In this document: positions 3,488 to 21,763 of the stretch, piece after piece
Numbering within the stretch: the first letter of the stretch is position 1
Layout of the letters: the number at the start of each line of letters is the position of its first letter
IMG/VR virus record: IMGVR_UViG_3300017560_000307
DNA: 22,008 nucleotides
Direction: 5' to 3' (one strand)
Origin: a virus
Taxonomy: Duplodnaviria; Heunggongvirae; Uroviricota; Caudoviricetes
Translations under genes and position numbers: made by a program
Notes under the pieces: generated by a model
Databases searched by the model: none
The model's input: only the letters and a program-made list of their open reading frames with translations
What the model was told of the DNA's origin: nothing

Positions 3488-4354
3488 ATGAAACTCTCAT
3501 TGCCCAGTCGGTCTAAAGGCCGACCTAGAAGGAATGCACCTGAGATACGGCGTACTATCATATCTGGCGACTGGCACATCCCAGAAGTAGATATTCCCAC
3601 ATACCGTGCCTTCCTCAATTTCATGCGTCATAAGCGCCCCGACTACCATATAATCAATGGTGATTTTATTGATGCTTATGAGCTCTCGAAGTTCGACAAG
3701 GATCCCGCCCGGCTTGGCCAGACTGCTGAGGAGTTGGGGATGGCGAAGCGAATCTTGGATGAGTTGGCGGAAGCTTCTCCCAACACAATTACCAAATTTC
3801 TCTATGGAAATCACTCTGATCGAATCAGACAGCGAATCCTCGAACATCCAGAGCTGCTTCCGTTTATGACTAAGTCAAAGGACCCCAACTCTGTGTTGGC
3901 TGAGGCCCTCAGCCTAAAAGAGCGGGGTATCGAGTGGTTTTCTTACCCAGATGTGTACAGTCATTTTGGATTTGATATCCAGCACGGTGGCAAAGGGTTA
4001 GGTGGTGGAGGCCAAAACCCTTCCAAGAGTGCTGCGGAGAAGGCTGGGGGGCCGGGTGTGCAGGGGCACTGGCATCGCGAGCGAGTCTGGCAAGTTGTCA
4101 ACCGCAGGACAGACTACAAGTTCTACACGCTTGGTGTTATGTGCCGTCTTAACCCAACCTATCTTCCCTTTAACGACTGGAGCCACTCATTTGGTTACCT
4201 TGAGCAACAGGTGGGGGCCGATCGACATGTATTTCACTCTATCCAAGTCGAAAAGGGGGAGTTCATGTTTGATGGGTACTTCTATAACCAGGATGGCGTA
4301 TTCGAATCTAAGCAGAAAGACTATAAAACCAGGACGAATCAAGGAGATATATGA
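3488..4354 (+). CDS. calcineurin-like metallophosphoesterase
   Basis: All five motifs present: GDWH, NGDFID, GNHS, QHG, GHWHR. Confidence 0.88.
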   Translation: MKLSLPSRSKGRPRRNAPEIRRTIISGDWHIPEVDIPTYRAFLNFMRHKRPDYHIINGDFIDAYELSKFDKDPARLGQTAEELGMAKRILDELAEASPNTITKFLYGNHSDRIRQRILEHPELLPFMTKSKDPNSVLAEALSLKERGIEWFSYPDVYSHFGFDIQHGGKGLGGGGQNPSKSAAEKAGGPGVQGHWHRERVWQVVNRRTDYKFYTLGVMCRLNPTYLPFNDWSHSFGYLEQQVGADRHVFHSIQVEKGEFMFDGYFYNQDGVFESKQKDYKTRTNQGDI

Positions 4355-7437: not shown

Positions 7438-7466
7438 TTGACATATTATAAAACCAAGTGTATGAT
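7438..7466 (+). promoter_or_regulatory. sigma70-like promoter
   Basis: TTGACA-17 nt-TATGAT; an overlapping - strand TATAAT at 7445-7450 may be a divergent promoter. Confidence 0.75.
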
Positions 7467-8769: not shown

Positions 8770-9046
8770 AGCAATCCTAAAAGGGCTAGGCATACTCGGA
8801 GCCTTCTCAATGACTGGCAGCCCAGAGATGGTGGTGAGTCAGGTAGGTCGCCTATCCATCCAAGCCTCGCAAGACCTCCTCGACCATCTCCTCTCCCTCC
8901 CCGAACTCCAAGAGACCCGAGAGCACAGCCACCCGACCAGGAACTACTGCGACCACTGCTGGGCTCAGGACATCAGGAACAAGGCTATCAGGGATGTAAG
9001 ATCGTCTCTCAAGCGGGAGCTAGGAATGGAGGCTGATGGCAAATAG
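8753..9046 (+). CDS. hypothetical protein
   Basis: SD AGGAGG; H..YCDHC metal-binding-like motif. Confidence 0.7.
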   Translation: MTEQVEAILKGLGILGAFSMTGSPEMVVSQVGRLSIQASQDLLDHLLSLPELQETREHSHPTRNYCDHCWAQDIRNKAIRDVRSSLKRELGMEADGK

Positions 9047-9542
9047 AGGTGTCGAGCCCATCTCTCAATGCTGCGGTGCTAAATTCGAGTTCATCGGGAG
9101 TGGCGCGCTGAATCCAGAACTAGATCCAGGCTATTGGCGCTGTTCTAAGTGTGGCTTCCAGTCTGAGGTCAAACAGCCTTTCGCTCGGGTCGGCCGGTTT
9201 ACTGGCGATGACTACTACCTCTACAAGGCTGAGACTACCCCTGACTCTGCTAACGAACCGGTTGTGATCGATCGCGATGGCACGCGAACCAAACCTCATC
9301 AGGCAGCAAGCTACGGCATCATCGACCAACTCCTAGACATCGCTGATGACACCAGCGGTGCCAGAGAACTCTCTATCCGGCACGCCCTATCTGAGTGGGG
9401 ACACGAAAAGATCGGACTATTGATGAAGTCGACTGGGAACAAGACCACGGCCGAGGAAGCGAACTACATCACTGGGTACAACACTGGCGTCAAACACGCT
9501 TACCAGGCTCTTATTACGGAATTGGAGGACAATGGAGATTAA
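9036..9542 (+). CDS. hypothetical protein with N-terminal Zn ribbon
   Basis: SQCCGA..WRCSKCG; SD GGAGG. Confidence 0.72.
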   Translation: MANRGVEPISQCCGAKFEFIGSGALNPELDPGYWRCSKCGFQSEVKQPFARVGRFTGDDYYLYKAETTPDSANEPVVIDRDGTRTKPHQAASYGIIDQLLDIADDTSGARELSIRHALSEWGHEKIGLLMKSTGNKTTAEEANYITGYNTGVKHAYQALITELEDNGD

Positions 9543-9897
9543 CCCTGCGCAGTTAAAGAATATGAATGACATCAAGGAATTTGCGCTCGAGTGGGCGGAA
9601 TTCCTGGACTATTTGGAAACAGATTCCGAATCGAGGAGAGAAGACTGGGAAAAAGAACGGTCCAGAGACTGGGCTGAAGCAAATCAGCGGGCTGATGAGT
9701 GGAACCAGCAAACACTTAGATCGTGGGAGGACTCTCCGTGGTGGGTCAAAGTCTTCTCTTCTGCTCCTTCAGCTCGATCAGTGAATAGCTTTAGGCAGCC
9801 GCGATTTGTGGGAGATGTCATCCCAAGGACATACAGTCAGCCCACCATGGAGGGCTTTATCTGGTGGCTCGGCAAGAAACAACGGGGAGAGCTATAA
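9532..9897 (+). CDS. coiled-coil paralog family member A
   Basis: MNDIKEFALEW...PWW...PTMEGFIWWLG; aligns by eye with 11228, 14578 and 15368. Confidence 0.8.
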   Translation: MEINPAQLKNMNDIKEFALEWAEFLDYLETDSESRREDWEKERSRDWAEANQRADEWNQQTLRSWEDSPWWVKVFSSAPSARSVNSFRQPRFVGDVIPRTYSQPTMEGFIWWLGKKQRGEL

Positions 9898-10115
9898 CAG
9901 TCACCTTCCGCCTCTCCATCCGCGAATACCTGTCTGAGTCATCGGAGACCACAGCTATTACCGGCTGCTGCTATCGGTCGACGGGCATGACACACTACTA
10001 CTAGGGTCGGACGATGAGAGCTTAGGCAGCTCCAGATCTACTGGCTTTGTGTCGGATAGAGTGACTGCTAGACTGTTCACGCGGCGCAATCATTTCTAGC
10101 GAACAGGAGTCTAGA

Positions 10116-10448
10116 GTGCCAATCATGATGATGACGACAGAGGATGGAGCTGGCCCGGTGGTCGTGTGTGACTACTGTGGTAAGAGAATCGTGGATTCCG
10201 ATGGTGTTAATTGCATCTGGAAGGATGAGAACTGCGAACCTGGATCCTTCTCTGACATGTACATCGTCCACAACCAATGCGACGAACTGATGCAACGACG
10301 TCACGGCGTGATGTCTAACTCAACGGAATTGGATATACTACTGCCTCAATTGGCAGACAACGTGAATATAGACTGGGAGAAGGCACGGCAACGGGCCAAG
10401 GAGGTGGCGAGCTTCATGACCTACGATGAAGATGAACTCCAGCCATAG
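10116..10448 (+). CDS. hypothetical Zn-binding protein
   Basis: GTG with SD AGGAG; CDYCG and HNQC motifs; followed by a terminator. Confidence 0.75.
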   Translation: MPIMMMTTEDGAGPVVVCDYCGKRIVDSDGVNCIWKDENCEPGSFSDMYIVHNQCDELMQRRHGVMSNSTELDILLPQLADNVNIDWEKARQRAKEVASFMTYDEDELQP

Positions 10449-10471
10449 AGTTGATCTTCATCACCCTCTTC

Positions 10472-10505
10472 AGCCCCCGGATCTCATGTCTGGGGGCTTT
10501 TGTCT
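10472..10505 (+). terminator. intrinsic terminator
   Basis: AGCCCCCGGA-TCTCATG-TCTGGGGGCT 10-bp stem followed by TTTGTCT. Confidence 0.78.
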
Positions 10506-10531
10506 ACCCCTCAAAAGTTCAATTTGGTCTA

Positions 10532-10560
10532 TTGACTTACCAATGGTAACAGCGTATAAG
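10532..10560 (+). promoter_or_regulatory. sigma70-like promoter
   Basis: TTGACT-17 nt-TATAAG; shares AGCGTATAAGGGAG with the promoter at 1740. Confidence 0.75.
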
Positions 10561-10582
10561 GGAGTTATTACCAAGGAGGCCG

Positions 10583-10927
10583 GTGAATAGAGAAACCCTT
10601 ATAGAGAAACTAAAAACAGAACCTGACATCCGCGTCTGGCAACAGATCCGCAACCTCAGCCCCTACGGCTTCATCTTCGGAAGCATGAAAGCCATTCCAT
10701 GGCCAGTTGAGGGTGGAACTGAGGAACAGTATGCCAAACGGTGTGTCGAGTTCGTGAGCCAGCTGAAGGACACATTTCACCTGCCTGACAACGATGAGCC
10801 CCTCGCTACCGGCGGTATCATCCGCGGCGTCCCTAATCTCGAGATAGATGAGATTGAGCCGGCCGTTGCTTACCCCGTCATCAAATCCCCTGAATACAAG
10901 GAAGAGCAAGGGGGGAACGGGCGATGA
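10583..10927 (+). CDS. hypothetical protein
   Basis: SD AAGGAGG, GTG start, first gene after the promoter. Confidence 0.78.
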   Translation: MNRETLIEKLKTEPDIRVWQQIRNLSPYGFIFGSMKAIPWPVEGGTEEQYAKRCVEFVSQLKDTFHLPDNDEPLATGGIIRGVPNLEIDEIEPAVAYPVIKSPEYKEEQGGNGR

Positions 10928-11238
10928 ATCCTGTCATCTTCTACTACATCCCAGGTCTTCTTTTGGGAGCTTTCTACTTCTCTCTCAACGGTAACTGGGT
11001 GTCCATTTGGGCTTTGGTCGGAACAATCCTGTTGATCGAGATGGTGTTTATCCTCCTTCGACGACACTTTGACCTCCAGCGCAGAATCCAATTCCCAGCC
11101 GGAACTCCAGTTGATATCGATATCTTCAGTAACATCGTGAGGATTGGCAGCAAATCCTTCCCCTTCTCCTCTGTCGAAAAGGTTCACGATACGGGGAAGA
11201 GTGTTGATGTGTGGATGAAGGAGGCAAATGGAGTTTGA
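10924..11238 (+). CDS. two-TM membrane protein with small cytoplasmic beta domain
   Basis: ATGA overlap; two hydrophobic helices, then a beta-rich tail. Confidence 0.72.
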   Translation: MNPVIFYYIPGLLLGAFYFSLNGNWVSIWALVGTILLIEMVFILLRRHFDLQRRIQFPAGTPVDIDIFSNIVRIGSKSFPFSSVEKVHDTGKSVDVWMKEANGV

Positions 11239-11599
11239 CCTATCCCACTTCCACAGCATGGACGAGATCAAAGAGTTCTCTGTCGAATGGTCGAAGTATT
11301 GCGCCGATGTTAAATCTGAAGAGAAGGCGCTCATCGCCAAATGGGAGAAGAATAAAAGGGAGGATAGGCTCGAGGCTGAGAAAAAGGCCGAGGAATATAA
11401 CGAATGGGCGAGGACCTTGCATGAAGAGCGTCTCCAGACACTCTTGGGCCGTCTTCTGCAGCCTGAGATAGAGCTTAGATCTGTAGAGTCATTCATGTCC
11501 TCCTGGGCACTCCGCTCATTCCCGCCCAGACTATATCCGTCGACAGAAGGGTTCATCGAATGGCTGGGTACGCAGAAGGAGGCCGATGCGACCAAGTAA
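11228..11599 (+). CDS. coiled-coil paralog family member B
   Basis: MDEIKEFSVEWSKYC...PSTEGFIEWLG; co-linear with member A. Confidence 0.8.
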   Translation: MEFDLSHFHSMDEIKEFSVEWSKYCADVKSEEKALIAKWEKNKREDRLEAEKKAEEYNEWARTLHEERLQTLLGRLLQPEIELRSVESFMSSWALRSFPPRLYPSTEGFIEWLGTQKEADATK

Positions 11600-11756
11600 C
11601 GAAGCCCTTGAGCGATACCTCAACCTCTTCCCCGAGGTTCGCTGGGATCGCTATATCGAGGACGACTGGTCAAAGTGGGAAGATCCTGAGTACTGCAAGC
11701 GTATAGACCGAGCCAACCGGTTGTTTGGTAAATATTGGATGCACCTGTGGGACTAG
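11586..11756 (+). CDS. 56-aa Trp-rich hypothetical protein (MRPSNEALERYLNLFPEVRWDRY...)
   Basis: SD AAGGAGG; overlaps the upstream stop; missed by the ORF track. Confidence 0.65.
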   Translation: MRPSNEALERYLNLFPEVRWDRYIEDDWSKWEDPEYCKRIDRANRLFGKYWMHLWD

Positions 11757-11953
11757 CGTGATAGCGACGTAATTGCGCACGTTGGGTTAGACGATAATGA
11801 GTTTATTCAGAGGCTGACCAATCTCGAATGGCACGATCAAAGATTGGGGAGACGAAGGCAGTGAAGATGAGGCTGGGCAAGTCACCCAACCTAACCGACT
11901 CTCTGAAGTTGGCCTATACGCCAAAAGGAAAGCTGGCCGAAGTCGGGTTTTGA
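11757..11953 (+). pseudogene. possible relic of a terminase large subunit C-terminus
   Basis: Two overlapping frames give LDDNEFIQRLTNLEW and SKIGETKAVKMRLGKSPNLTDSLKLAY, resembling the TerL-type C-terminal motif (K.RLGRSPD.ADALAL). No credible start for the first part. Confidence 0.45.
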
Positions 11954-11977
11954 GTGATTGATTAGAGTACTGGTGAT

Positions 11978-12163
11978 TTAGCGCTTCGCTTCGCACTTGC
12001 GGCATTTCTCGAAAGCACCGCCGTTGTCGGTGCCGCACTTGGAGCAGGTCCAGTCAAGCCACCGAATGTGCGCCTCAGGGGCTGTGGCATTGAAGTTTTT
12101 GCACTTGGAGCACTGGTATCTGTCGTCAGAGTTGGAGGTCCCGCAGCGATCACATGTCCACAT
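11978..12163 (-). CDS. tandem RanBP2-type (NZF) zinc-finger protein
   Basis: Two exact W-x-C-x2-C-x3-N-x6-C-x2-C motifs; SD AAGGAG; own promoter. Confidence 0.85.
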   Translation of the reverse strand: MWTCDRCGTSNSDDRYQCSKCKNFNATAPEAHIRWLDWTCSKCGTDNGGAFEKCRKCEAKR

Positions 12164-12209
12164 CTGTGAAGCTCCTTTTATATTCGCAATTCAGAAGTCG
12201 AACAGACGC

Positions 12210-12239
12210 ATTCTAGCAGGAGATGTAGAGTCGTGTCAA
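12210..12239 (-). promoter_or_regulatory. sigma70-like promoter for the zinc-finger gene
   Basis: Minus strand TTGACA-18 nt-TAGAAT with a TGn extended -10. Confidence 0.7.
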
Positions 12240-12596
12240 AACGCCTTGAGGTGGTATCAGATTCCTCGGACGTAGTCTATTATGTCATGCAACTACGGGG
12301 TTTATAATTTGGAAGAGATCCGATACGTCCATTAGGACAATTATTGGACAGGGGATAGTGGGGAATCAGTCACAAGGATGATCGCTATACTTAATCAGCT
12401 TTAATATGATTAGGGGCTTGTGTCTGCTGGGCGTGAACCTGGGTTGACGTTACCCTCGTATACCCCAGCAGTGGTTGGGATCTGGGTAATTGGCTAATAC
12501 CGCTATGACTGAACTTCCGACACAATGATGTCATTTTCGTAAGTCTCAGCGAAAGAGTTGGGCCTCATCAATAATTGGTTAGTGTGAGAGGAGTTC

Positions 12597-13346
12597 ATGG
12601 TGGGATTACTTGATTTCTTCAGAGGCAAGCAGAGTAACCAAGACAAGGCGGATGTCTCTATATCAGAGACTAATTTTGCGACGTGGAGGGATCCTGTTGT
12701 GGCGCCACCCACTGAAGAATGGGAACGTCGCCTCAACAACTATTCAGAAAAATGTGCTCGCCAACTCAAGGAGTCTGGTGTGCCTTTGTTTCAATCCCAG
12801 TGGCCCAAGGGAGGCAAAGGAAATTACCGTGATGCATTTTGGTTGATCGCGTGCAACGTCGAAGTGGCTGAAAGAGTTTGGGTAGCGCATCCTCTCTTTG
12901 GTACGAAAAACTCGGATGCAGGGTATCCACCGCCACTTCAAAAGGGTGAATTCTTCGGATGGTTTCATGGAGAATCACTCTTACTCACCAGTTCTGGAGT
13001 CTTGTGTGTAGCGGATGCTTCTGGTTGTTTGATAAGGAACGGCGGCGGTGTCGACAATCGCATGATGGACATTGGGTTTAACGATATCCGTAGACCATTG
13101 ATTTCATTCAAAAGTGAAGATTGGGGTTGGAGTAATCGAGGGATGTGGCGGAGGAATCCTAAGTCAGACTATAGTTCTCAAGGACTCAAATTCTATATAA
13201 ATGGCATACGCTTTGAAGAAAAGCGCCATCGTACTAAACCGTATGCTGAAGATGGACGTGATACCAGCGCGGCACTGACCAACTTCGTAAAGACGAACGG
13301 GCAGATACGATGGCCACGAGGGTTTGTAAGTTTTCACTACAACTAA
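12597..13346 (+). CDS. 249-aa orphan protein
   Basis: SD GAGGAG; long ORF isolated between non-coding stretches; no recognised motif. Confidence 0.75.
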   Translation: MVGLLDFFRGKQSNQDKADVSISETNFATWRDPVVAPPTEEWERRLNNYSEKCARQLKESGVPLFQSQWPKGGKGNYRDAFWLIACNVEVAERVWVAHPLFGTKNSDAGYPPPLQKGEFFGWFHGESLLLTSSGVLCVADASGCLIRNGGGVDNRMMDIGFNDIRRPLISFKSEDWGWSNRGMWRRNPKSDYSSQGLKFYINGIRFEEKRHRTKPYAEDGRDTSAALTNFVKTNGQIRWPRGFVSFHYN

Positions 13347-13557
13347 GTAAAGTTATTGTATAGTGCTGACGTTGATCCGACTAAGTCTACTTTTGTCGAC
13401 TTTCACCTACCCATCGGCTATCTCGACAGCTTCCAGCCGTCTACATGCATACCCTTGTGGGGTTTGTCCTCGTTTCTTGGGGAGCATATCCCAACCAATG
13501 TCCGATATAAAACTTTCTACTCCAGATGGAGATTGATTTTATACCGTGTGTTATCTA

Positions 13558-13586
13558 TTGATATATTGTATCAACTGGCGTATAAG
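13558..13586 (+). promoter_or_regulatory. sigma70-like promoter
   Basis: TTGATA-17 nt-TATAAG preceded by GCG as in the other copies. Confidence 0.65.
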
Positions 13587-13613
13587 TAAGATATAATCCC
13601 AATCTCTCTATAT

Positions 13614-13742
13614 ATGACTATACGGGCAGTAATACATTTTAACGGAGTCTTTGTCTCCAAAACTTCGGCACTGACGGCCAGTGGCAAAACTGTGGAATTT
13701 CTGATCGCGACACTCAAGGAGGCCAATGGGTCAACTCAGTAA
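13614..13742 (+). CDS. possible 42-aa hypothetical protein
   Basis: ATG shortly after the promoter; stop overlaps the next gene; no SD. Confidence 0.35.
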   Translation: MTIRAVIHFNGVFVSKTSALTASGKTVEFLIATLKEANGSTQ

Positions 13743-14256
13743 TACCGAACGCATCGCCCGTGAGCTGATGAAGCACTACTACCCCGAGCTCCACCAGTGG
13801 CACAGCTACCGCCCCGACTGGCTTCAGAACCCTGAGACTGGAAAACCGCTTGAAATCGATATTTTTATCCCAGACCTACAAGCAGGGCTGGAATTAAACG
13901 GAATCCAACACGGTCGGCCGATAGATCGCTTCCACAAGGATTTCGCTGCCTTCGAGAAACAGCAGCGCCATGACATGCTGAAGATCGAGCGGTGCAATGA
14001 ATTCGGTGTCAAACTCTACCGCCTGACCATCTTCGACCTCACCCAGAAGCCCTTTGAAGCCTTCTTGCGGCGATTTGAACAAGATAACAGGCTCATACAC
14101 CCACGCTACCTTGCTCCGCCCCTGGAACTGTATGCACAGGCCGAGAAACTGAGCCGCATGAAGTTCCGTCCCAGGAATATAGATGCTGAAATGTCTGAGC
14201 ATTTAAGCATCCAGATGTCTGTATGGCAGAGAATTTGGAAGTGGTTGAATGAATAG
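13726..14256 (+). CDS. PD-(D/E)xK nuclease, DUF559/Vsr-like
   Basis: RPDWLQNPETGKPLEIDIF...LELNGIQH...QQRHDMLK..C..GVKL; SD AAGGAGG. Confidence 0.8.
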   Translation: MGQLSNTERIARELMKHYYPELHQWHSYRPDWLQNPETGKPLEIDIFIPDLQAGLELNGIQHGRPIDRFHKDFAAFEKQQRHDMLKIERCNEFGVKLYRLTIFDLTQKPFEAFLRRFEQDNRLIHPRYLAPPLELYAQAEKLSRMKFRPRNIDAEMSEHLSIQMSVWQRIWKWLNE

Positions 14257-14581
14257 CCCACAAGGGCAGAAATGGAGGACGATGTATCTAATCAGCGAAG
14301 AACAGAGATTATCGGAAGAGAGGGACATCATGGTGGCCCTTGCTCTTGTCCGAGATGTGTATGACCAGCCTAACGGCGCTTATGGTGGCAGTTGTCACAT
14401 GGTGTTAGACGACGAGAATATTGAGGATCAGCATATTGACTGGGTTTTCGAGCATGTACGCATGACTGACTGTGAGCGTCAGTGTATGGATGCGTTGAGA
14501 AAGCTTTCAAAGCTGAATCGAGCAGTGGTGTTGAACCGATTTCATAGAGGGAGCCCAGCAGGGCAGAACGGAGGAGAGTGA
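14249..14581 (+). CDS. phage hypothetical protein
   Basis: GGSCHMVLDDENIED motif; overlapping start and stop. Confidence 0.72.
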   Translation: MNSPQGQKWRTMYLISEEQRLSEERDIMVALALVRDVYDQPNGAYGGSCHMVLDDENIEDQHIDWVFEHVRMTDCERQCMDALRKLSKLNRAVVLNRFHRGSPAGQNGGE

Positions 14582-15045
14582 ATCTAGATCTCACATTATC
14601 AAAGGAATTGCTTCCAGCCTGGTCGGAATATTGCGGCGAGGTTGATAAGCGAAATGAAGCGTTGACCCGCAAGTACGAACGGGAATTAAAGACCTTTCGA
14701 AAGAGGATGAAGCAAGCTGTTGAGGAATGGCGCAAGATTGAGGAGGATGAAAGGGAGCAGGAGAGAAAACTAGATGACAAATACCGAGAGCAGTATCGGG
14801 CCTACAAAGCTCTCCCATGGTGGAAGCTGAAGCCTATCTATAGTCCCAGGTCTCCGGAATCGAAGGAGTATAAGGACTACTGGGCTCAAAAATTGGCTGT
14901 AGCTAATAACATCAGCTCACTCTACTCTGAGTTGACCCGGCCAAACCCTCCAGCCAAACCACAATACGAGGAGAAGACCGTAGAAGCTTTTCTTACGTGG
15001 TTGGCAGATCAGAAGGCTGATACACAGCCGGAAGGAGGGGAATGA
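14578..15045 (+). CDS. coiled-coil paralog family member C
   Basis: AWSEYCGEV...PWW...KTVEAFLTWLA; GTGA overlap. Confidence 0.8.
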   Translation: MNLDLTLSKELLPAWSEYCGEVDKRNEALTRKYERELKTFRKRMKQAVEEWRKIEEDEREQERKLDDKYREQYRAYKALPWWKLKPIYSPRSPESKEYKDYWAQKLAVANNISSLYSELTRPNPPAKPQYEEKTVEAFLTWLADQKADTQPEGGE

Positions 15046-15371
15046 GCCGTTGGGAGTACTACGTCATCGAGTGGCGAATAGAAATTGAGAATTTTGACCC
15101 AGTATATAAGCTTTCACACTTCCTCATCGGTCGGGAACCTGAGGGGCTGGAATCTTTCGGACCAGTCTTCGACTTTGAAGCAAATGGCATCAATGTCCTG
15201 AGCAGACTGATTGCACGATTGGGAGTGGAAGGTTGGGAAATCATTTCTGACGTCGACACATCGATGAGCTGGGTGACTGTCAACCGTACCTATATGGGCC
15301 ACTACGACGAACACCACGTCGCCAGGTCGGGTCGGTACCTATTCAAGCGCCCGATTGAGGAGGTTGGATGA
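15042..15371 (+). CDS. DUF4177-like protein
   Basis: RWEY at N-terminus, LGVEGWEII, and C-terminal YLFKRP. Confidence 0.72.
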   Translation: MSRWEYYVIEWRIEIENFDPVYKLSHFLIGREPEGLESFGPVFDFEANGINVLSRLIARLGVEGWEIISDVDTSMSWVTVNRTYMGHYDEHHVARSGRYLFKRPIEEVG

Positions 15372-15847
15372 CCCTGGAGGTAGCGATTTCACCAGAGCTG
15401 ATCGGGGAGTGGAAGCGATATATAGATGAAATCGCCGCTCGGAATAGTGAGAAGCAGAAAAACTACAGTGAAGCTGCTACCAGTCTCTATGAGGATCACG
15501 CAAAAAGGGTACAGGAGCTGAAGGACGAGGAGGAGCGTTGCCGGATAGCATATGAGGAGGCAGAGCGCCTACTCTCCTCTCACATCAAGCGAGAAACGGA
15601 ATCCCAGCGCAGCTTTAGTTTCCCGTGGTGGAATCTGGATGAACCCATACCTACCATCCCAGAAGTGCTAATTGAAAATAGTCGTGCAGCTCGCCGAGAG
15701 TATCACGAATCAATCCAGAGACGTATGCGGGATGAGTGGAGATTTCCCGACACAGTAAGATACCTCGGCCGGCGTCCTGCCAATGAAGAGCCTACTATGG
15801 TTGGATTTCTCACCTGGATGGCCAATCAAGGGTTAGGACAGTCATGA
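15368..15847 (+). CDS. coiled-coil paralog family member D
   Basis: ELIGEWKRY...PWW...PTMVGFLTWMA. Confidence 0.8.
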   Translation: MTLEVAISPELIGEWKRYIDEIAARNSEKQKNYSEAATSLYEDHAKRVQELKDEEERCRIAYEEAERLLSSHIKRETESQRSFSFPWWNLDEPIPTIPEVLIENSRAARREYHESIQRRMRDEWRFPDTVRYLGRRPANEEPTMVGFLTWMANQGLGQS

Positions 15848-16611
15848 GGCGCCTCTTCGCGATCGGAGACATCCACGGCCACCACACCGAGCTGATGAAC
15901 CTCTACCAACAACTCGACGATGCCGGCATGCGACCAGAGCGCGACCAGCTCGTCTTCATTGGTGATTTTATTGATGGAGGTCCGGACAGCAAGAAGGTTC
16001 TCGATCAACTCATCGCCTGGCAGGAAGCCTATCCCCATTGGGTCTTCCTTCGCGGCAATCACGGACAGATGATGCTCGATGCTCTGAACGACCCAGGCAA
16101 TTGGCGCACATTCGATCTTTGGTATAACCAGGGCGGAGAATCTACAGCCAAGTCATACCTCCCAGAAGACCTGACTCCCTATGAGCGAGCCACGGCGACA
16201 CCCTGGAAGTTTATCGACTCAAAACATGTCGAGTGGATTCAGCAGCTTCCTTATATATACGAGCATCCCACCTTCTTCTTCGTCCATGCGGGACTGAATC
16301 CCAACTACCCTCTCAATGAGCAGACGATACAGGACTTGCTGTGGATCCGCGGAGAGTTCTACAACTCAAGGCACGACTTCGGTAAGCCAGTAGTCTTCGG
16401 TCATACAACATTCAACGAGCCGCTGGTGCAACGTGTCCTGGTGAGCCCGGAAGCAGTGAAGCCCATATCGTGTATAGGCATAGACACGATGTTCCTCAAC
16501 TCAGGGAAGCTGACCGCGGTTGAGCTGGATCCAACCAACCCTCATATCTATCCCCGGTTCTTCTTTAGTCATTCAGTGGCTAGCGAATCAAAGCAGTTGC
16601 AAAGACGATAA
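15844..16611 (+). CDS. PPP-family Ser/Thr phosphatase (lambda-PP/PrpA-like metallophosphoesterase)
   Basis: GDIHG, GDFIDGG, RGNHG, HAG, FGHT and IDT motifs. Confidence 0.9.
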   Translation: MRRLFAIGDIHGHHTELMNLYQQLDDAGMRPERDQLVFIGDFIDGGPDSKKVLDQLIAWQEAYPHWVFLRGNHGQMMLDALNDPGNWRTFDLWYNQGGESTAKSYLPEDLTPYERATATPWKFIDSKHVEWIQQLPYIYEHPTFFFVHAGLNPNYPLNEQTIQDLLWIRGEFYNSRHDFGKPVVFGHTTFNEPLVQRVLVSPEAVKPISCIGIDTMFLNSGKLTAVELDPTNPHIYPRFFFSHSVASESKQLQRR

Positions 16612-17197: not shown

Positions 17198-17794
17198 ATG
17201 AATCTGTCCCAACACATCCGTATTCTGTCAGAGAATGCCTTTACACGGCAATCCAAGCTCCCTGGCCACCCTCCAACCCCTGATATGAGACCCTTCCTGG
17301 CTGTTCCAATTCGTGAACGGCTTGTGTTGCTTGCCATATATGACGGCCAACCCATGGAGGTCATCAAGGGAGCGTATCCCTGGGCGAAAGAGACAGACGT
17401 TCGCCGTACCTCACACCGGATCCAGGACGCGTTGGCCATCTTCAACGCTGCTCTCAAAGAGCCGACGGCTTGGATCAACCCTGGTCCGTATCCTGTCGCC
17501 GAGGTGGATGGCGATTTAGGGTATCCAGACACTCCCTTTCCTATTAATTCACGCACTATTCCCGCAGACACCGACAAACAGTTCCGCCAGGCATGGTTTC
17601 CATCGACGCCACTCATGCTCTTTGGTGCTCATGTTCCGCCGGCTATGTCCCAGTTGAGTCTGAAGCGGCGATCGATCGTGTACCTGGCTGTGGTGGAGGA
17701 GTGGAGCTACAGCCAGATCATGGAGACCCTAGAGTGCAGCAAGCGGCAAGTACATACCAGCCTGATAAAGGCAATAGAAGCATTAGGAGGATAG
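17198..17794 (+). CDS. sigma70 region-4-like HTH transcription regulator
   Basis: C-terminal LSLKRRSIVYLAVVEEWSYSQIMETLECSKRQVHTSLIKAIEAL fits a region 4 HTH; a weaker similar segment is near the N-terminus. Confidence 0.7.
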   Translation: MNLSQHIRILSENAFTRQSKLPGHPPTPDMRPFLAVPIRERLVLLAIYDGQPMEVIKGAYPWAKETDVRRTSHRIQDALAIFNAALKEPTAWINPGPYPVAEVDGDLGYPDTPFPINSRTIPADTDKQFRQAWFPSTPLMLFGAHVPPAMSQLSLKRRSIVYLAVVEEWSYSQIMETLECSKRQVHTSLIKAIEALGG

Positions 17795-18821: not shown

Positions 18822-20513
18822 ATGCTCAAGGGGTTAATTCTGGAGAATTTCAAGGCGTTCGGCGAGCGCCAAGAGATTCCTCTTGCTCCGATCACTCTTA
18901 TCTACGGACAGAACAGTGCGGGGAAGAGTTCTATCATCCAGGCCCTATTGGCACTTAAGCAGACTCATGATTATAACCGCATAGATCCTGTAAAAAGCAC
19001 CCTTGGAATGCTCACAAGTCGAGGTAGTTCTGTAGATATCGGCATGTTCTCCGAATATGTTTACGGCAATGATAATGGTCGGATTATTAGTCTTGGTTTG
19101 GAATCAATCGAAATCAGCAATGAGGATTATGGGTTTGATTCATTTAGGAGTGAAATTGGTCATTTTGGAATATCATATTCATCGCTTCTGCATTGGTTAG
19201 AAGGTCTCCCAATACATATTGAATATGCTCTTGAAAAGGGAGATGAGGTGAAGGATTCTAATCTAGCTGCCTTATCATTGAGCGCTTATGGTTCTCTTTT
19301 CTGTACGTTTAGTAAAGAGACTATTATATACGCCGACATTGAGGGTGCTGGCACACATGAGGTATTCATCGATGTGATGCTTTCTCTGGATGAAGTCTAC
19401 CGGGGATCCGGACTCTCAGGTCATATGGCATCCGAAATGTTTAAAAATATAATAGATATGATTGCTAAACATGATGAAGTGCCTGGAAGATATAAGGTTC
19501 CAGATATCTATATAGAGATGTATCTTGAGCTGATGTCTAAGAGAATGATGTATCGGAGTGTCCTCAGGTTTTTGAGCTTAGATACCATAATGGAGTCTGA
19601 AGTGGTGGATTCCGCTGAAGGAAGACCTGAGCCTGCGCATGGAAACATTCGTGATTACTCTTTAGCAGCAGAGCAAGTTTATTCTGAAGCCTCCCTGCTG
19701 ATAAATGCTATTGTGGGGACTCAAAGGATTGATACTCAGAGTGAAGAGAGGCTCGATTTAGTCTGGGAGGTCGCGGAGGAGATATTCAAATTCCGGTCAT
19801 TCTGGACAAAATTTGCTGCTTCCATGTCAATACGAATGCTGAATAAGTTAAGCCTGAAGTTGTCTCATGTTGGACCAGTGAGGCGAGTCCCAGACCGGAT
19901 CATTTATGCTGCAGATGAGTCAATGCAGCATAATCATGACGACAGGTCTAATTGGCCAATAATCTTGAGGAACAGCCAAAGGGCTTTAGACAGTGTAAAC
20001 GAAGATCTTGAGATGCTCGATATCCCATATCAGGTCAAAGTCGCATCACATAAGATTAAGGGTGTGAGCGATATTTTTACAATCACTGTTCTTGATACTA
20101 AAACCAGAATAGAAAATGCGATTCGGGATGTAGGCTATGGGATTGGACAAGTACTGCCTGTCATCTTGCAGTCCGGGCTTTCTCAAAGGGGGATAATTGC
20201 CCTGGAACAACCAGAACTGCATCTTCATCCCAGGCATCAGGCGAACCTTGGTTCTCTCTTTGCGCGTAGTTGGCGAGAGAGGGGCAATCAGTTCATCATA
20301 GAGACCCACAGCGAGCAACTCATCCTCCGTCTGCAGAAGCTAATCCGAAAGGAAGAATTATCTCATAAGGATGTGTGCGTACTCTATGTTGATCGGGATG
20401 AGAATGGTTCTCACTGCCAGCGACTTCGCCTGGATGAGACTGGCAAAATCATCGATAACTGGCCTGGAGGGTTCTTTGAAGAATCTTTTTATGAGATGTT
20501 CGATATCACATAA
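18822..20513 (+). CDS. ABC-fold AAA_15/COG4938-type ATPase with C-terminal DUF3696
   Basis: Walker A GQNSAGKS, HVGPVR..P.R, signature VGYGIGQVLP, Walker B EQPELHLHP, IETHS, and DUF3696-like end LDETGKIIDNWPGGFFEE. Confidence 0.9.
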   Translation: MLKGLILENFKAFGERQEIPLAPITLIYGQNSAGKSSIIQALLALKQTHDYNRIDPVKSTLGMLTSRGSSVDIGMFSEYVYGNDNGRIISLGLESIEISNEDYGFDSFRSEIGHFGISYSSLLHWLEGLPIHIEYALEKGDEVKDSNLAALSLSAYGSLFCTFSKETIIYADIEGAGTHEVFIDVMLSLDEVYRGSGLSGHMASEMFKNIIDMIAKHDEVPGRYKVPDIYIEMYLELMSKRMMYRSVLRFLSLDTIMESEVVDSAEGRPEPAHGNIRDYSLAAEQVYSEASLLINAIVGTQRIDTQSEERLDLVWEVAEEIFKFRSFWTKFAASMSIRMLNKLSLKLSHVGPVRRVPDRIIYAADESMQHNHDDRSNWPIILRNSQRALDSVNEDLEMLDIPYQVKVASHKIKGVSDIFTITVLDTKTRIENAIRDVGYGIGQVLPVILQSGLSQRGIIALEQPELHLHPRHQANLGSLFARSWRERGNQFIIETHSEQLILRLQKLIRKEELSHKDVCVLYVDRDENGSHCQRLRLDETGKIIDNWPGGFFEESFYEMFDIT

Positions 20514-20527
20514 AGGGAGGAGGGGTA

Positions 20528-21763
20528 ATGCTGGTCCGTTCGATTCATATGCCAGAAGCTTATATGCCCCACGATAAGTTGGGAGATAAGGAGTACAAAA
20601 ATTGTCTTCGATTGCTATTGGATGTAGCTGCCCAGGGGCTAATGTTGAGTGATAAGGGGCGGCGAATAGTGAACTCAATTGCCAAGTCGATAGTTCGCTG
20701 GCCAGAGCCTTATCGTAAAGAAGCCACGACCGTACTCAAGCAGATGGAAAAATCAAACAGAGTTAAATACCTCGCTAATATAGAGCCCTCCGATGACTCC
20801 ATTTGCACTCTCGCCGCGGAGCTGGCCACGCAGTTTGATGTCGAGGTCGTGCTCGGAGATGTTAATTGCTCTGCCATTCAGTTGTCTCCGTACCCGAAAA
20901 CTCAAGTATTTAATCCTTGGGAATATAGAGAGGTTTGCGACGCTCGTTTGGCGGTACGTGGCGATGATGATTTGCCAGTGAGACTTGGTGAGGCAGCGGC
21001 CCGGGTTGCAAAACGAGTGCTCTACCCAGCCTTGGTTCACACTACGAGTCTTGAGATTCTTGATAGAAATATTGGCAGACTCGGGTATAAAACGATACGT
21101 GAAAAGTGGTTAAATAGAGGTAATCAGCCTGATCTCCAGCGTTACCTCGATAGATGTCGCCGAGATGGGCCTCAACGGCTCTATGATTTCTACCCGAAAA
21201 ATTATGATAAAACGTTGAACTGGCTGTTCTACTATCTATGTGGAATTCACCGCAATAACCCCTTAGAGGTAAAAATACTGACCGAGATCAGTGGTATTTA
21301 TACTGATATGGAAGGGAGGGTATTAGATAGTAAAGAAGGGTTGGAAGTAATGATATATGCACTAAAATGGTTCTGTCTGAATAAAGAAGAGTTTTGGAAT
21401 AGTAAAAACGGGATAGATGTGAAATTCATTCTGAAAGTTGGATTCGAAAATGGACCTCAATTAGACCACGATCGACATTGGAGGACAGACCACACGAAGT
21501 TTGTGTCTAGCCGCGGCATGGACATGTTTACTTCCAACTCAAAAAAAGGCGAAAATAAGACGAGGAGAAATACCTATACTCGGAAAAGAGAAGGGGAGTT
21601 TGAGCTTGTTGATGGTGTAGATGGTATAGGAATTAGAAGGACGAATGTTAGAAATGTAGTGGATGAGGCATTTAGCGAAGGATATAGTTTGATTGACGCA
21701 GAGGTAGAGAATGTTGATCTTATTATGGGGACGGTGGTCAGAGGATACCAGATGATCAATTGA
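20528..21763 (+). CDS. putative effector with C-terminal MITD1-like half-PLD domain
   Basis: SLEILDRNIG...KILTE...DHDRHWRTDHTKFVSSRGMDMF resembles the MIT_C/PLD-like pattern (I.D.YI...HDR....GRGLD.F); strong SD GGAGG; 14 nt from the ATPase stop. Confidence 0.65.
   Translation: MLVRSIHMPEAYMPHDKLGDKEYKNCLRLLLDVAAQGLMLSDKGRRIVNSIAKSIVRWPEPYRKEATTVLKQMEKSNRVKYLANIEPSDDSICTLAAELATQFDVEVVLGDVNCSAIQLSPYPKTQVFNPWEYREVCDARLAVRGDDDLPVRLGEAAARVAKRVLYPALVHTTSLEILDRNIGRLGYKTIREKWLNRGNQPDLQRYLDRCRRDGPQRLYDFYPKNYDKTLNWLFYYLCGIHRNNPLEVKILTEISGIYTDMEGRVLDSKEGLEVMIYALKWFCLNKEEFWNSKNGIDVKFILKVGFENGPQLDHDRHWRTDHTKFVSSRGMDMFTSNSKKGENKTRRNTYTRKREGEFELVDGVDGIGIRRTNVRNVVDEAFSEGYSLIDAEVENVDLIMGTVVRGYQMIN

Follow-up and report, generated by a model that had tools for sequence, protein, structure and literature searches.

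In lambdoid phages, the nin region is made up of non-essential genes and holds NinI, a Ser/Thr phosphatase. To our knowledge, no nin protein is homologous to the proteins described here, nor does lambda contain a four-fold expansion of paralogs of this kind. The locus in question lies in a 22,008-nucleotide (nt) stretch of viral DNA, referred to below as the window, that is the minus strand of positions 22782–44789 in a 74,944-bp IMG/VR record (IMGVR_UViG_3300017560_000307) labelled as a provirus and estimated to be ~55% complete. Its source is an uncultured soil phage with four diverged copies of one small protein, which we call A, B, C and D. The four almost certainly form one novel protein family, each member conserved at its two ends and at a turn between them, and variable elsewhere. 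The genes are these:

9532–9897, plus strand: paralog A, 121 amino acids (aa; P0001), short subtype, by translation
11228–11599, plus strand: paralog B, 123 aa (P0002), short subtype, by translation
14578–15045, plus strand: paralog C, 155 aa (P0003/P0005), long subtype; its GTG start overlaps the upstream stop (GTGA)
15368–15847, plus strand: paralog D, 159 aa (P0004), long subtype, with translational coupling to the NinI-like phosphatase gene that follows

The four open reading frames (ORFs) stand where the original prediction, made from the letters of the window alone, had put them; their translations agree exactly with what it quoted, and its motifs are all present. Written as regular expressions, composed after the sequences had been seen, the N-terminal motif E-[FL]-x3-W-x2-[YF] and the C-terminal motif [TS]-x-x-[GAE]-F-[LI]-x-W-[LM] co-occur in A–D only, that is, in 4 of the 607 ORFs of at least 40 aa that make up the genome set; in shuffled proteomes the expected number of ORFs carrying both is ~0. 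PWW is found in three of the four, as had been said: A, C and D have it, and B reads TLL instead, at residues 71–73. A GGAGG-type Shine–Dalgarno sequence stands 5–8 nt 5' of the start in all four copies (ggaggaca before the ATG of A, aggaggcaa for B), and each start overlaps the preceding gene, the overlap being 11 nt in A and B but 4 nt in C and D. Letter-identical A–D family proteins occur on contigs of several soil samples. Because of these strong ribosome-binding sites, the translational coupling, and the identical copies in several soil samples, we regard A–D as real genes. A soil metatranscriptome library contains 100%-identical contigs over B (11098–11439) and over the 3' end of C (14843–15049), a weak hint of expression, since DNA carry-over is possible.

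Direct comparison divides the four into the two subtypes that had been proposed. By BLASTP, A and B are 30% identical (E 8e-18) and C and D 27% (E 7e-10), a divergence at which synonymous sites between paralogs are saturated; between the pairs, only short matches at the ends are found, with E-values of 7e-5 to 0.011. Searched against the 607 ORFs, a profile of A and B has C in third place (E 1.4e-4) and D in fourth (E 0.23), and with a profile of C and D, B comes third (E 0.033) and A comes eighth; from the four genome copies alone, the link between the pairs is marginal. Relatives from elsewhere strengthen it. HMMER, run exhaustively over 1.84 billion representative proteins, returned seven family proteins in all at E<=1e-3—seven representatives among about 15 billion proteins—and three of these come from outside the phage:

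P0006: 164 aa, E 1.8e-15
P0007: 134 aa, E 5.6e-7
P0008: 119 aa, E 7.1e-7

Nearly the whole of P0007 aligns with A (1.7e-9) and likewise with C (2.3e-13); for P0008 the matches are to B (3.5e-5) and to C (1.8e-6), and for P0006 to C (6e-23) and to D (2e-26). A profile built from P0007 and P0008 alone places C, A, B and D, in that order, at the top of the 607 ORFs, and one that adds A and B to these two recovers, in the same set, C with an E-value of 1e-12 and D with one of 8e-5. Whenever members are left out of a profile, they return as its top hits. Because the three outside relatives bridge both pairs, and because profiles find again the members that were left out of them, A, B, C and D are homologous, and the single family of four that had been proposed holds up, the similarity among its members being significant by way of the bridges. 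That A/B and C/D are two unrelated pairs, whose end motifs are shared by chance or composition, is scarcely credible: the modest cross-pair BLASTP values speak for it, as do the high HMMER bias scores to which the charged helix gives rise, but it must contend with the near full-length matches of P0007 to members of both pairs, with the pair-omitting profiles that put the missing pair at the top of the genome set, and with end motifs that are collinear as well as exclusive to A–D.

The original prediction recognized no named family, and nor do we. Scans of the seven members against Pfam, PHROGs, NCBIfam and PADLOC, and a profile search of PDB sequences, gave nothing above threshold. The sole recurring weak match is to Pfam T7SS_signal, in two of the seven (best E 0.0022, 18.4 bits against a gathering cutoff of 27); WXG100 (PF06013) is absent from the Pfam matches up to an E-value of 1, and the best match to the PADLOC-DB defense models has an E-value of 0.035, in one member only. 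Word-based protein searches with A, with D, and with the seven-sequence profile found only the queries themselves or members already known. A megablast search with positions 9000–16000 found no match in a phage collection or in a collection of complete E. coli genomes, and no fifth copy is detectable in the 74,944-bp record. Judged by these searches, the family is previously unnamed, very rare, and without a match to any named family in the libraries searched; as far as public data show, it is limited to a lineage of phages from soil and leachate that has been little sampled.

Alignment of all seven sequences (A, B, C, D, P0006, P0007 and P0008) resolves each protein into three conserved islands, at the two chain ends and the turn, separated by two variable stretches. 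From N- to C-terminus, pairwise identities are as follows:

N-terminal island, E-[LF]-x3-W-x2-[YF]-x3-[VI]-x3-N: 28%, BLOSUM 1.5 per column
Mid helix, the first part of the shaft: 17%, with insertions and deletions
P-W-W turn: 33%
Return segment: 20%, with insertions and deletions
C-terminal island, [TS]-x-E-G-F-[LI]-x-W-[LM]: 39%, BLOSUM 2.3 per column

These values bear out the conserved ends and variable middle that had been described for the four. Members range from 119 to 164 aa in length, and the differences are restricted to the mid helix and the return segment. The invariant W and WW lie 49 to 72 residues apart, and WW and the invariant F 37 to 62; in six of the seven members, P0007 being the exception, one spacing increases with the other. 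Nowhere in the family alignment is there a conserved run of 7–10 columns.

In composition, the proteins are charged (32–39% of residues) and rich in tryptophan (2.5–7.4%, against a background of 1.7%), and they are weakly acidic to neutral, with isoelectric points of 4.9–7.9 and net charges of +1 to -7. They have no hydrophobic segment, and their grand average of hydropathy is -0.83 to -1.27. One suggestion in the original prediction, that they might be membrane-tethered adaptors, finds no support in these figures; its others, host-protein inhibitors and anti-defense decoys, stay candidate roles. Nor do the proteins have the strongly acidic character of DNA-mimic anti-restriction proteins of the Ocr/ArdA type, and a profile match to those is absent as well. 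The coiled coil that had been proposed is probably better read as an intramolecular antiparallel hairpin; just 42–53% of heptad a and d positions are hydrophobic in the best register.

Structure prediction points the same way. The AlphaFold2 model of A (predicted local distance difference test, pLDDT, 83.9; predicted template-modeling score, pTM, 0.59) has helices at residues 11–66, 70–75 and 84–87 and a C-terminal helix at 106–117; that of C (pLDDT 81.4, pTM 0.55) has a helix at 11–77, a turn, and helices at 96–120 and 135–149. The first helix thus spans 56–67 residues in the two models. The ESM Atlas holds models of its own for C (pTM 0.60) and D (pTM 0.65), the latter of which agrees, as do the models of A and C, with the hairpin topology that had been proposed. 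The consistent prediction is of a long intramolecular antiparallel alpha-hairpin with PWW at or near its tip. To judge from their joint conservation, from the topology, and from the linked lengths of the two arms, the C-terminal helix would pack on the N-terminal W/Y motif.

Such a fold has many look-alikes. Antiparallel helical hairpins match residues 37–126 of C in very large numbers and with a flat run of scores, prefoldin, EsxA/B, ESCRT-III, SMC arms, and viral fusion cores among them; the best Z is 8.4, many lie at Z 7–8.4, and 755 chains are at Z>=5. The nearest structural neighbors of the Atlas models of C and D include hairpins of PPE, SbcC/Rad50, HlyD and BAR, with template-modeling scores of 0.44–0.71; those of D are antiparallel coiled-coil hairpins. 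Foldseek found nothing in the PDB for the model of A at E<=0.001, the best BFVD match to the model of C has an E-value of 0.36, and a wide VIA structure search gave generic long-helix or hairpin matches only. Hairpin matches of this kind carry no family information.

How the family changes can be seen in a relative from a leachate metagenome, L010, whose DNA is 94.7% identical to the window up to position 14581 and again from 15849. The first of these positions is the end of the gene preceding C and the second is the start of the phosphatase gene; the intervening cassette has been exchanged exactly at gene boundaries. In the window, the cassette (14582–15848) comprises C, D, and an ORF between them:

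15042–15371, plus strand: unrelated 109-aa ORF, without a hit to any family; absent from L010

In L010, the corresponding segment (724–1625) comprises the family gene P0006 and, after it, an unrelated ORF of 135 aa. P0006 is itself mosaic: the opening 61 nt are like D at its 5' end (75%), a stretch of 105 nt close to the other end is like C at its 3' end (86.7%), and the center is ~30% identical to C or D at the protein level. At the left edge of this variable cassette lies an ORF of 176 aa (13726–14256, plus strand) that resembles homing endonucleases and could promote exchange there.

The relative also has a copy of B, reconstructed from 38 listed substitutions. Residues 1–33 of this copy are unchanged, and 11 of its 12 amino-acid changes fall within residues 34–82. 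They include the change from TLL to TFW, at the place where other members have PWW. Twelve of the changed codons are non-synonymous and seven synonymous, against four and five, respectively, in the upstream gene, and several of the changes are runs of adjacent bases, so that they look more like an imported segment than like point mutation. At the level of strains, the comparison supports ends that stay fixed and a middle that changes, without amounting to proof of positive selection. Elsewhere in the relative, 273 nt inside a 114-aa gene (10626–10900) are skipped, and 2157 nt after B (11578–13736), which hold a 56-aa ORF, an antisense zinc-finger gene, a 249-aa ORF and a 77-aa ORF, are replaced by 547 nt. 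In runs X9 and X10, no contigs cover A, a gap in coverage and not evidence that A is absent. Taken together, these comparisons of sequence show a family that evolves as its genes duplicate, as the shaft undergoes insertions and deletions, and as copies recombine with one another.

A promoter-like sequence, TTGACA-N17-TATAAG, has eight matches in the window with at most two mismatches, where 1.2 are expected; all are on the plus strand, and several precede gene clusters. These sites, and a likely terminator, are:

1740, 3429, 10532 and 13558, and more weakly 4991, 5698, 7438 and 17148, plus strand: promoter-like sites, by sequence match
7438–7466, plus strand: promoter-like site before the A unit, of which A is the last family-bearing gene, by sequence match
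10472–10498, plus strand: strong terminator-like hairpin, an 11-bp stem and a T run, between the A and B units
10532–10560, plus strand: promoter-like site before the B unit, by sequence match
13558–13586, plus strand: promoter-like site, TTGATA-N17-TATAAG, before the C/D unit, by sequence match

The arrangement fits three putative plus-strand transcription units, with A in the first, B in the second, and C and D in the third, as had been anticipated. Run X8, a soil metatranscriptome library, has 100%-identical contigs over several parts of 10582–16333, and its depth peaks at 11678–12198, over the end of the 56-aa ORF, an intergenic stretch, and the antisense zinc-finger gene. Further genes near the family are:

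3488–4354: second, weaker Metallophos protein
11586–11756, plus strand: 56-aa Trp-rich ORF after B, with a match (2.5e-5) to the C-terminal end of PHROG 11543, whose function is unknown
13726–14256, plus strand: the 176-aa homing-endonuclease-like ORF, residues 38–100 of which match an endonuclease core (PHROG 559, HNH endonuclease, 1e-11; PHROG 9084, homing endonuclease)
15844–16611, plus strand: NinI-like Ser/Thr phosphatase (PHROG 246, 1.3e-49; Pfam Metallophos)
17198–17794: protein with a weak Sigma70_r4_2 hit, downstream of the family genes
18822–21763: DUF3696 ATPase pair

The remaining neighbors include YopX proteins, an HNH-AP2 endonuclease, and many ORFans; a 502-aa ORF after the defense pair has no match in phages. 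Beyond the window lie a portal protein of 713 aa fused to a Mu F-like domain (G000:C1:18629–20770, minus strand) and, as the next large ORF, a protein of 533 aa with an N-terminal prohead protease S78 domain, possibly a protease–capsid fusion. With these neighbors, and with the portal and protease genes following beyond the window, the family region is, as far as gene order can tell, an accessory stretch of nin-like kind that precedes the late genes. The portal has no close relative in reference genomes. The nearest cultured portals are <=27% identical and belong mostly to phages of Gram-positive bacteria (Bacillota, Actinomycetota).

Two candidates in this neighborhood were set aside. One is a repeated module of partner gene plus family member: the genes upstream of family members, of 168, 104, 110, 109 and 116 aa, have no similarity to one another. 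By eye, those just upstream of B (10924–11238, plus strand) and of P0008 (L012, 64–414) begin with hydrophobic segments, like a transmembrane stretch or a signal, of a kind not seen in the partners of A, C and D. A search for related loci by their upstream neighbors gave one irrelevant 19-residue match (L013, a record without a family member) and nothing more. The other is an antisense ORF of 241 aa with a TTG start (10870–11595, minus strand) that runs across B and the gene upstream of it. Its Ser content is 18.7%, and although the frame remains open in the relative, it has 24 amino-acid changes there, more than the sense frames; we judge it a probable by-product of E/K-rich sense frames rather than a gene.

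What might such proteins do? The best overall explanation, in our estimation about evenly balanced between right and wrong, is a novel, diverged family of paralogous hairpin binders in a nin-like region. A helix of ~50–70 residues would start at E-[LF]-x3-W-x2-[YF] and end at the Pro-Trp-Trp turn; a return segment of matching length would follow, and then a conserved amphipathic C-terminal helix that may clasp the start of the long one. The three islands would hold the scaffold, and the sides and length of the shaft would differ from copy to copy. The functional part of this explanation—that the proteins are putative soluble binders of host or phage proteins—is tentative, and we hold it to be somewhat more probably wrong than right. 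If it is correct, different copies would bind different host or phage proteins stoichiometrically during infection, for takeover or for counter-defense, with specificity set by the variable shaft. We see no indication of an enzymatic, DNA-mimic or membrane role. A bolder version, doubtful in our view, makes of the family a new modular binder scaffold: a rigid hairpin 'ruler' with an invariant N/C clasp and Pro-Trp-Trp tip, whose shaft is re-cut and re-surfaced by recombination to give a repertoire of inhibitors, each directed against a different host defense or housekeeping protein.

Several points weigh against the binder explanation. The structural models were built on alignments of just four to seven sequences, and the contact between the N- and C-terminal motifs comes from the reasoning given above, not from model coordinates. 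The 12:7 ratio of codon changes in the relative's copy of B suggests relaxed constraint or an imported segment, and is not a demonstration of positive selection. The whole region, moreover, is mosaic in the relative, and therefore variability is not specific evidence for an arms race centered on this family.

Other roles can be imagined. Small helical proteins often serve as development regulators, and these could be anti-repressors, anti-sigma factors or timing factors that bind transcription proteins of phage or host and steer the phage's own development, rather than counter defenses. Their nin-like position between early functions and late genes would suit this, as would the weak Sigma70_r4_2 protein encoded just downstream (17198–17794). 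Four diverged copies in three units, freely replaced between 95%-identical phages, suit an accessory function better, however, and in the absence of a DNA-binding motif or family hit we consider developmental regulation unlikely. Virion and assembly proteins, too, are often long and helical with conserved ends, and the elongated helical shape predicted here, together with weak structural matches of A to T7 tail or ejection proteins (Z 5.2–5.3), might suggest scaffold-like, internal or ejection proteins. But those matches are at background level, the genes are spread over three units, which are separate from the portal, protease and head module and lie upstream of it, and structural genes are seldom swapped between phages 95% identical; a place in the virion is quite improbable.

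Secretion deserves a closer look. On this account, the proteins would be substrates or targeting partners of a type VII secretion system (T7SS)—akin to WXG100, PE/PPE or Lap proteins—and would be exported by the T7SS of a Gram-positive host or escort a neighboring effector, as in the WXG100 systems of mycobacterial prophages; a survey of Mycobacterium prophages, to go by its title and term counts, reportedly discusses WXG100 proteins. The predicted hairpin with an aromatic turn motif speaks for it, and the structural matches include EsxA/EsxB and EsxEF for C (Z 7.7, root-mean-square deviation 2.9–3.4), LapD2 for A (Z 5.1), and PPE and CdiA_C/T7SS_signal clusters among the Atlas neighbors. The subthreshold Pfam T7SS_signal matches, and the Bacillota and Actinomycetota hosts behind most of the nearest portals, lean in the same direction. 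Yet the structural scores lie within the flat background of hairpins; the turn is not W-x-G but reads PWWV, TLLG, PWWK, PWWN, PLWK or SWWR, with P0006 alone reading PWWG; no Y-x3-[DE] is conserved near the C-terminus; WXG100 is missing from the Pfam matches up to an E-value of 1; and no LXG, toxin or EssC-like neighbor was found among the annotated neighbors. We regard export by this route as very improbable.

Whichever role proves right, the novelty lies at the level of the protein family, which has neither a sequence relative nor a specific structural relative in the libraries searched. Small ORFan expansions are common in the accessory regions of phages, and if the shaft does not set specificity, this would be one more of them. 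If it does, the family would be a small scaffold of natural origin on which protein binders could be evolved, and would supply new phage counter-defense or takeover factors. It is a well-defined and easily tested case, with four short soluble proteins, three sharply conserved islands, and a fold predicted with confidence, and the 95%-identical relative provides a natural 'swap experiment'.

Of systems already described, WXG100 proteins such as EsxA and EsxB, along with PE/PPE and Lap, resemble the form predicted for the family: soluble and small, they are antiparallel helix-turn-helix hairpins whose turn carries an aromatic motif. EsxA/B superpose on residues 39–133 of C with a Z of 7.7 and a root-mean-square deviation of 2.9, a score equaled by hundreds of unrelated hairpins. 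The family differs from WXG100 in having no sequence match to it, in turning at P-W-W rather than W-x-G, in lacking the Y-x3-[DE] export motif, and in being longer (119–164 aa), with an additional C-terminal helix. Generic hairpins—the arms of SMC, Rad50 and SbcC, the HlyD/EmrA adaptor, prefoldin, and ESCRT-III—share with its predicted shape a long helix folded back on itself and have no sequence relationship to it. Each belongs to a larger protein or assembly whose partner domains are known, whereas in the family the predicted hairpin makes up the whole protein and has conserved end motifs of its own. The lambdoid nin region, finally, resembles the locus in its small, tightly packed, translationally coupled accessory genes, with a NinI-like phosphatase beside them and the late genes downstream; in the window, mosaic exchange takes place at gene boundaries, and the likeness to the nin region is one of context only.

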